Under the pieces are notes generated by a model that was not told where the DNA came from, did no database searches, and saw nothing but the letters and a program-made list of their open reading frames with translations. A DNA stretch of 15,268 bases from a virus, in UHGV virus genome UHGV-0136483. One strand, written 5' to 3'. Positions 53-948 of this stretch are shown one piece after another. A program made the position numbers and the translations under genes. The stretch's first letter is position 1; every line of letters starts with the position of its first letter.

Positions 53-948
53 GTTCGTGCCGATCAGCTCTGGTCACAACTTTGCCAGACAGGTCCGTTC
101 CGGAATGTGGATATAAATGACTTCAAAAGTCTGCTTAAACATATGGGGACATGTGGCCTGCTCACTCAACTAGCCAGCGGTTAAATAGTTGTCGGGGCTG
201 AGGGGGAGAAGCTGATTAATCACTACACGTTTTATGCCGTATTCAATACATCTGAGGAGTTTCGCATTGTAACGGGAAACCGAACTCTTGGCACAGTGCC
301 TGTAGACTCCCCACTTTTGCCGGAGCAGCACATCATCTTCGGCGGACAGCGCTGGAAAGTGACAGAGATCGAGGTTGAAAAAAAGCTATCTATGTTGAGG
401 CGACTAAAGGCGGGCAGCCACCACTATTCAGTGGTAGCGGGATGTCTGTTCATGATGTTGTTCGCCAGGAGATGCTCGCTATCTACAGGGAAAATGATTA
501 CCGTATCGCGGTAGGCAACAAGAGAGTTGATTATGCTGATGCCGCAGCCAGAAGCCTCTTCGCGGAAGGAAGTGACAACTTCCAACGCTACAATCTACAA
601 AATCACTGTTTTATTGCCAGTGGTCAGAACTGCTACGTGATCCCGTGGATGGGGGATAAAATTGTCAATACAATTACGTCCCTGCTTATACGTTGTGGCT
701 TTAAAGCCAGTTCATTTGCAGGTGTGATAGAGGTAGAGGGCTCAGGCGTTGCCTCTGTTCAGCGTGCACTTAAGAAAATGTTATTGTCGGGGTTACCTTC
801 AGAGTTTGAGCTTGCTGCAGTTGTTCCTGACAAGTACCTGGATAAATATGACGAGTATTTACCAGAGACTTTGCTTGCTACAGGGTATGGGGCACAGGCG
901 TATGATACAGAAGGAACGTGCATCTGGCTGCAGAAACACCTTCAGTAA
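53..948 (+). pseudogene. Remnant of a larger gene of unknown function: 5-prime truncated at the IS end, with an in-frame TAA (182-184) and a frame change inside an A7 run (378-384); the 3-prime part is the track ORF 442-948 (168 aa)
   Basis: One reading frame is open from 53 to the TAA at 182-184 and again 185-514; the protein-like sequence then continues in the next frame (open 379-948). The switch point coincides with the homopolymer gttgAAAAAAAgc. There is no RBS or start at the 5-prime side, which abuts the IS terminus. Family not recognised. Confidence 0.5.

Follow-up and report, generated by a model that had tools for sequence, protein, structure and literature searches.

Positions 53 to 948 of the window, by which we mean the whole 15,268-nucleotide stretch analyzed here, are almost certainly a non-functional relic of sngC, the gene for the Lhr-like SF2 helicase of the defense system Shango (sngA-sngB-sngC). 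The remnant corresponds to the 3' 41% of the gene (Table 1). The original prediction, made from the letters alone, had described a gene remnant of unassigned family inactivated in three ways, by truncation at an IS3 element, by a premature stop and by a change of frame. All three features were recovered at the positions it had given, the family can now be named, and we found nothing that contradicts the pseudogene reading. The defects themselves are not new, as RefSeq and PGAP already label the identical locus L001 as a DEAD/DEAH helicase pseudogene that is 'frameshifted; internal stop; missing N-terminus'. Comparison with other alleles adds to this annotation the identity of the gene and a series of intermediate states, from which a stepwise decay of the operon can be proposed.

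Table 1. Coordinates of features in the window, with the evidence on which each assignment is based.
Feature	Position	Strand	Evidence
IS1203 (IS3 family), right end	1-52	+	PGAP record of L001 (identical locus); another copy of the IS in L002
Remnant of sngC (pseudogene), codons 435-732 of 732 in the helicase gene	53-948	+	DNA homology; PADLOC SngC
Nonsense mutation, GAA (Glu478) to TAA	182-184	+	Comparison of the window and L001-L008
Frameshift site, A7 then a single G (A7 and GG in in-frame alleles)	378-385	+	Allele comparison
168-aa ORF, SngC residues 565-732 from an internal Met	442-948	+	SngC profile positions 564-719
Intrinsic terminator of sngC, 16-bp hairpin and T6	960-998	+	Folding; kept downstream of intact sngC
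Unannotated 42-codon gene, convergent with sngC	997-1125	-	Synonymous-only differences; wide protein conservation
DUF262/GmrSD_N gene	1778-2806	-	PADLOC NsnA 2e-39, PD-T4-2_A 1e-27
Gene for a 349-aa protein with weak SIR2_2/AbiH matches	2806-3855	-	'SIR2 family protein' in one RefSeq record
Transposase remnant, flanked by the SIR2-like gene and the integrase	4042-4412	+	RefSeq in L001: 'transposase; frameshifted; missing C-terminus'
Tyrosine integrase ending the island	4563-5780	-	Adjoins tRNA-Arg argW in L001
torI	6017-6217	-	Prophage end

The remnant is the 3' part of the Shango helicase gene

Shango is a three-gene defense system composed of a TerB-domain protein, an ATPase and a helicase (10.1101/2022.05.11.491447; 10.1101/2022.11.11.516204). 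It was found in E. coli defense islands (Millman et al. 2022 preprint, 10.1101/2022.05.11.491447) and described from P. aeruginosa PA14 (Johnson et al. 2022 preprint, 10.1101/2022.11.11.516204), and protection against phages has been reported for the intact systems of both (10.1101/2022.05.11.491447; 10.1101/2022.11.11.516204). Its helicase, SngC, falls with BrxHI, DruE and DpdJ into one clade of defense helicases (PMC12278908).

When the stop and the frame change are repaired, the remnant yields a 298-aa reading, which aligns with positions 434-719 of the 720-position PADLOC profile for SngC (E = 1.3e-82, 276.7 bits). The corresponding match to PADLOC BrxHI is far weaker (5e-17, 59 bits). At the DNA level the remnant shares 97-98% identity with sngC from E. 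coli genomes whose sngABC operon is intact, with values of 97.6-97.9% for the loci L003 and L004, in which the 732 codons of sngC are uninterrupted. Homology to L003 starts at base 53, runs past the terminator to about position 1257 of the window, and then ends. A megablast search of positions 53-1000 against 5,426 complete E. coli genomes matched 786 of them, 549 with at least 80% query coverage, and 'DEAD/DEAH box helicase' was the annotation under every match listed. A protein-like signal that arose by chance, or that belonged to a different and unrelated gene, is incompatible with such a profile match, with 97% identity to intact sngC over 1.2 kb and with a homologous gene segment in 549 E. 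coli genomes, and we give that reading no weight.

Pfam returned only sub-threshold matches to the repaired remnant (WH_Lhr, 0.16; a zinc finger, 0.12). Since these are too weak to name it, its identity was taken from PADLOC and from the DNA homologues. NCBIfam holds no Shango-specific models, which explains the generic name used by PGAP and RefSeq.

The intact operons of L003 and L004 provide the reference structure. There sngC is the third gene, and the operon also encodes a 769-aa TerB_N/TerB/TerB_C protein and a BrxC_BrxD ATPase of 438-441 aa; the L003 proteins match PADLOC SngA (4e-103), SngB (2e-187) and, over its full length, SngC (5e-277). Pfam places a DEAD domain at residues 25-200 of intact SngC, a Helicase_C domain at 261-363 and a weak WH_Lhr match at 406-465, and its first ~285 residues match two Lhr-type helicases of solved structure, 5v9x and 7lhl (~1e-28). 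Intact SngC also matches PADLOC BrxHI from end to end (1.7e-116); it scores 919 bits against the SngC profile, however, and 388 bits against BrxHI, and the partners encoded in the operon are TerB and BrxD-like proteins rather than a BREX set.

Measured against this reference, the window copy runs colinear with the C-terminal 298 residues of SngC and is followed by the same terminator as the intact genes, but it is a pseudogene and not a working member of the family. Because it starts at codon 435, the SF2 helicase core (residues 25-363), with its DEAD and Helicase_C RecA-like domains and their ATP-binding motifs, is wholly deleted, as are the start codon and the beginning of the putative winged-helix domain. 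What is left of the reading frame is interrupted by the TAA and by a -1 frameshift at 385. The operon context is missing as well: IS1203 lies directly upstream of the remnant, with neither sngA nor sngB, whereas both genes are found upstream in the orthologous loci L003, L004, L022-L025 and L065. With no start codon, no helicase core and no sngA or sngB upstream, the remnant would do nothing; we infer that it is not expressed and persists as neutral DNA between the IS and the next genes. Protection against phages is not expected of it.

As predicted, the reading runs to a strong terminator: the stop codon at 946-948 is followed by a hairpin (960-994) with a perfect 16-bp stem and then T6, with a folding energy of -21 kcal/mol and a z-score of -5.5 relative to shuffled sequences. 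The same hairpin was considered as an integron attC site for the small ORF beyond it and rejected by eye, given its perfect stem and the lack of R''/R' core motifs.

IS1203 is fused to codon 435

The predicted truncation by an IS3 element proved exact. The window opens with the last codons of the transposase gene and its TGA stop (8-10), upstream of a terminal inverted repeat that finishes in ...GGGGCGGTTCA at base 52, and homology to intact sngC begins precisely at base 53, which is nucleotide 1303 of the gene and the first base of codon 435. In L001 the coding sequence for the transposase of 'IS3-like element IS1203' stops at the base equivalent to window position 10. An independent copy of the element in L002 matches window positions 1-52 at 100% and diverges at 53. 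The last 52 bp of IS1203 are those present in the window, and the rest was read from L001, whose right end is identical; there the element measures 1310 bp and is bounded by the inverted repeats TGAACCGCCCCGG... and ...CCGGGGCGGTTCA. These TG...CA repeats, together with a two-ORF transposase that carries the PGAP note 'programmed frameshift', agree with its placement in the IS3 family, as IS1203.

No 3-bp target-site duplication was found around this IS1203 copy (left flank ...CAGGC, right flank GTTCG...). Furthermore, the element stands in place of positions 4842-7000 of L006 (strain NCTC10444), so that 2,159 bp of the NCTC10444-type arrangement are gone: part of an old IS remnant, a stub of sngB, and nucleotides 1-1302 of sngC. 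A simple insertion of an IS3-family element differs from the window copy on both counts, the absent duplication and the missing 2.16 kb. Together these point instead to an insertion accompanied by an adjacent deletion or to recombination between IS copies. IS1203/IS629-type elements of the IS3 family, which cause adjacent deletions, share the size, inverted-repeat and programmed-frameshift design of the element seen here, and this copy adjoins a truncated gene. The left flank of the IS is different again in L002, which indicates that the junction predates later rearrangements.

The stop codon and the frame change

The three-frame translation follows the remnant in frame 1 from base 53 (VRADQLW...), across the TAA and on to ...WKVTEIEVEKK, and then in frame 3 (AIYVEATKGG...) to the final TAA. 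The premature stop is a change from GAA to TAA. A T occupies the site in the window, L001 and L002, all of which have the IS1203 junction, and a G occupies it in L003-L008, so that all six alleles without the junction read GAA.

The passage from frame 1 to frame 3 was located at GTTGAAAAAAAGC (374-386). Here the prediction was right about the place and slightly off about the base. It had put the change within the A7 run, yet the in-frame alleles also contain A7, as seen in GAAAAAAAGGCT (L002) and GAAAAAAAGGTT (L003 and L004) against GAAAAAAAGCT in the window. The lost base is therefore not an A but one of the two Gs directly after the run, at its 3' edge (window position 385; gene nucleotide 1635, codon 545), and the length of the run is unchanged.

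L005, L006, L001 and the window have the G deletion, and L002, L007 and L008 lack it. Among the 18 E. coli genomes that carry the junction, it occurs in the six that are 100% identical over spans of 948 nt, and it is also found in R1 and NCTC10444, both without the junction. This distribution is at odds with four linked markers (+A844; sites 2228, 2498 and 2559), and within the clade of 27 genomes that share the allele of the window a minimum of three events would be needed to explain it, unless recombination or assembly error is responsible; the deletion thus appears homoplasic. L002, with its junction and stop and no frameshift, had suggested to us that the frameshift was the latest event, an ordering we dropped since L005 and L006 carry the same deletion without IS1203 or the stop.

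Recurrence at one site raises the question of whether the -1 change at this Lys-Lys A-run is a reversible or recoded switch rather than random decay. The deletion allele keeps the heptamer A_AAA_AAG in the zero frame (by codon arithmetic on the window sequence), and either a -1 ribosomal slip at this dnaX-type motif or an extra A introduced by transcriptional slippage would restore E-K-K-A-I, the same arithmetic showing that a -1 slip returns translation to the native frame. Besides the homoplasy of the G deletion, an independent -1 change has occurred at the same site in another lineage (A5 in L012-L015, A6 in L016 and L065), L010 is probably one base short there too, and intact genes maintain a run of A6-A8 (A7GG in E. 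coli, A8G in Pectobacterium, GAGA6G in L016 and L065). However, every -1 allele seen at this site sits in a copy with other lesions, either loss of sngA or sngB or further frameshifts, and some of the -1 calls may be errors of long-read assembly. A 70-mer test sequence with the G deletion in the background of the common allele matched none of 549 E. coli genomes exactly, in a test that does not distinguish an allele lacking an A from the in-frame allele, and a scan of 185,579 GTDB species-representative genomes with a degenerate -1 pattern recovered no sngC, its 39 hits being unrelated. In the window, moreover, the upstream TAA and the 434 missing codons make recoding irrelevant. We consider a switch very improbable, and we allow an equally slight chance to the more general proposal that -1 frameshifts recur, perhaps reversibly, at the Lys-Lys A-run of sngC, where slippage could rebuild the native protein. 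Were this proposal true, some of the sngC genes now read as 'frameshifted' would not be dead but leaky or phase-variable, and the window copy, with its stop and its 434 lost codons, would still go unrescued. Random decay is the reading we retain, and the site may plausibly be a slippage hot spot in copies that are already dead; nothing beyond that is supported.

A separate frameshift is seen in L065 (positions 3280-5474; GCA_016743095.1, CP068237.1), a complete genome whose sngA-sngB-sngC operon is intact except that a -1 change near codon 563 splits sngC. This site differs from that of the window, and a real mutation and an assembly error are both possible.

The 168-aa open reading frame is part of the pseudogene

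The 168-aa ORF (442-948), which gene-calling software would be expected to report, could be taken for a functional stand-alone gene that encodes the C-terminal domain of SngC from an internal start, and the original prediction had named a complete gene of this kind as one outcome that would overturn it. ORFs of 154-169 aa with 47-99% identity to this region are indeed called in many assemblies, the Met at SngC position 565 is conserved, and the last 168 residues of the protein act as a mosaic block of their own in several lineages, with identity falling from ~90% to ~75% at residues 546-564. Yet the segment of the SngC profile matched by the ORF is simply the end of the full-length protein, PGAP makes no separate call, and GGTAGCGGG, which precedes the ATG at 442, bears by eye no clear likeness to a Shine-Dalgarno sequence. 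Contig look-ups argue the same way. Most of the seven ORFs looked up have more sngC upstream, in another frame or behind an in-frame stop, as in L011 (in-frame stop) and in the frameshifted copies of L012-L015, L065 and L066. In L010 the short ORF belongs to a short remnant that begins at about codon 545 and retains ~20 upstream codons of homology, and in L016 it belongs to an IS-flanked remnant of 268 aa on an IncFII plasmid. A functional stand-alone gene is on this evidence extremely unlikely, and the ORF is best seen as a part of the pseudogene that aligns with the last residues of SngC.

A protein search with the 168-aa ORF returned short proteins only and no full-length SngC, in a word-index search that favors short entries. 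A family of small proteins drawn from these short matches was rejected as a selection effect, since the contig look-ups show broken or truncated sngC, and we find no evidence among the sequences compared for a stand-alone family of ~168 aa. For purposes of annotation, calling the ORF as a gene should be avoided, and this locus is no ground for scoring a genome as Shango-positive.

The drop in identity noted above was seen when L012, L065 and L066 were aligned with SngC of L003, and suggests that the last ~168 residues form a separately exchanged and more variable block.

A proposed stepwise decay of the operon

The allele of the window was found at 99% identity or more in 27 of the 5,426 E. 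coli genomes, and 18 of these 27 have the identical fusion of IS1203 to codon 435. Among the alleles compared, the TAA turned up solely in those with the junction (window, L001 and L002), and identity values imply its presence in at least 17 of the 18 junction genomes. Four of the nine genomes without the junction were examined, those of R1, NCTC10444, RM11911 and NS-NP030 (L005-L008). In these, sngA is gone, the last 411 nt of sngB lie beside a degenerate transposase gene of the IS3 family, and sngC is full length and frameshifted, with lesions that vary by strain (+A at nucleotide 844, -A at 1451, -G at 1635). Relaxed selection, once the partner genes were lost, would produce such variable frameshifts as its expected outcome.

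With homology, lesion coordinates, intermediate states and population counts all directly observed, a chronology can be proposed, in which the temporal order of the second to fifth steps would be read from seven sequenced examples and not from a full phylogeny of the 27 genomes. An ancestor would have carried an intact sngABC operon. An older IS3-family element would then have removed sngA and about two thirds of sngB, leaving the system dead and sngC free to drift. The arrival of IS1203 together with the 2.16-kb deletion would have taken what was left of sngB along with codons 1-434 of sngC, fusing the right end of the element to codon 435. The change of GAA to TAA would have followed in the lineage bearing IS1203, and the one-base G deletion beside the A7 run would come and go within the clade. 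The series, from intact operon to loss of sngAB, to IS1203 truncation and stop, and to variable frameshift, would illustrate how a pseudogene decays after a first disabling hit.

A second and independent IS-bounded 3' remnant of sngC is found in L016 (positions 6001-6807 of the IncFII plasmid contig CABHKM010000007.1). It covers residues 470-731 and lies between two transposase genes of the DDE_Tnp_1 (IS5) type, and a gene of 42 codons, described below, survives beyond the downstream IS.

The island and its neighboring modules

The suggestion that the reading is the decayed remains of another island gene has been substantiated, as sngC lies here in a defense island integrated at tRNA-Arg argW of E. 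coli. The locus would exemplify the turnover of such islands, with an operon dismantled stepwise by insertion sequences next door to a module of SIR2-like and DUF262 genes. The latter pair, whose co-occurrence with the lost gene had been raised as a question, is present in exactly 27 of the 5,426 E. coli genomes, as many as make up the clade with decayed Shango, and all 27 have the decayed system. Another, common sngC allele is carried by ~520 further genomes; two of its loci were examined (L003 and L004), and there sngC is followed by different genes. A functional link between sngC and the pair was rejected on these grounds: co-occurrence is not specific, and the Shango remnant and the SIR2/DUF262 genes appear, from their distribution, to be neighbors in one lineage and not a conserved partnership.

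A transposase remnant separates the SIR2-like gene from the integrase (Table 1). Beyond the integrase, the window retains only ~15 nt of the 3' end of the tRNA (5929-5943), at which ARAGORN found no tRNA. Island-type and prophage-type sequence overlap there by 17 nt (5927-5943), a segment that includes the 3' tip of the tRNA, and the end of a lambdoid, KplE1-like prophage with torI follows. The stretch from 4563-6217 on to 15268 carries elements arranged in tandem at tRNA-Arg argW, in which torI is followed by a lambdoid early region (ERF, anti-RecBCD, kil/cIII and a LexA-family repressor). No complete E. coli genome in the collection covers 80% or more of positions 5500-15268.

A conserved 42-codon gene downstream of sngC

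A by-product of the analysis is of more interest than the sngC remnant. Outside the pseudogene, within the segment (949-1257) that is still common to the window and intact Shango loci, lies a gene of 42 codons on the opposite strand, MGLKPGPKPIAKSTGKPDQRRRDNKDTPGNTPGLKPSKSTGK, with its ATG at 1125-1123 and its TAA at 999-997. An AAGGA motif stands 8 nt upstream, and the stop codon overlaps the T-run of the sngC terminator. PGAP does not annotate the gene in any of the eight E. coli loci examined (L001-L008), and its product has no family in Pfam or NCBIfam.

The gene differs from its counterpart in L016 by 11 synonymous, third-position substitutions and no non-synonymous ones, while the adjacent sngC DNA is only 81% identical; relative to L003 there are two synonymous and again no non-synonymous differences. 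This pattern of substitution is a clear sign that the gene is under purifying selection. More than 340 protein clusters from several phyla match its product at ~82-100% identity, with representatives in Escherichia, Klebsiella, Enterobacter, Pectobacterium, Pantoea, Vibrio, Acidovorax and Chlorobium. In Pectobacterium the gene lies directly downstream of intact sngABC in 4 of 4 loci, whose far flanks all differ. The copies in Vibrio, Acidovorax and Chlorobium have no Shango beside them and lie among variable small genes.
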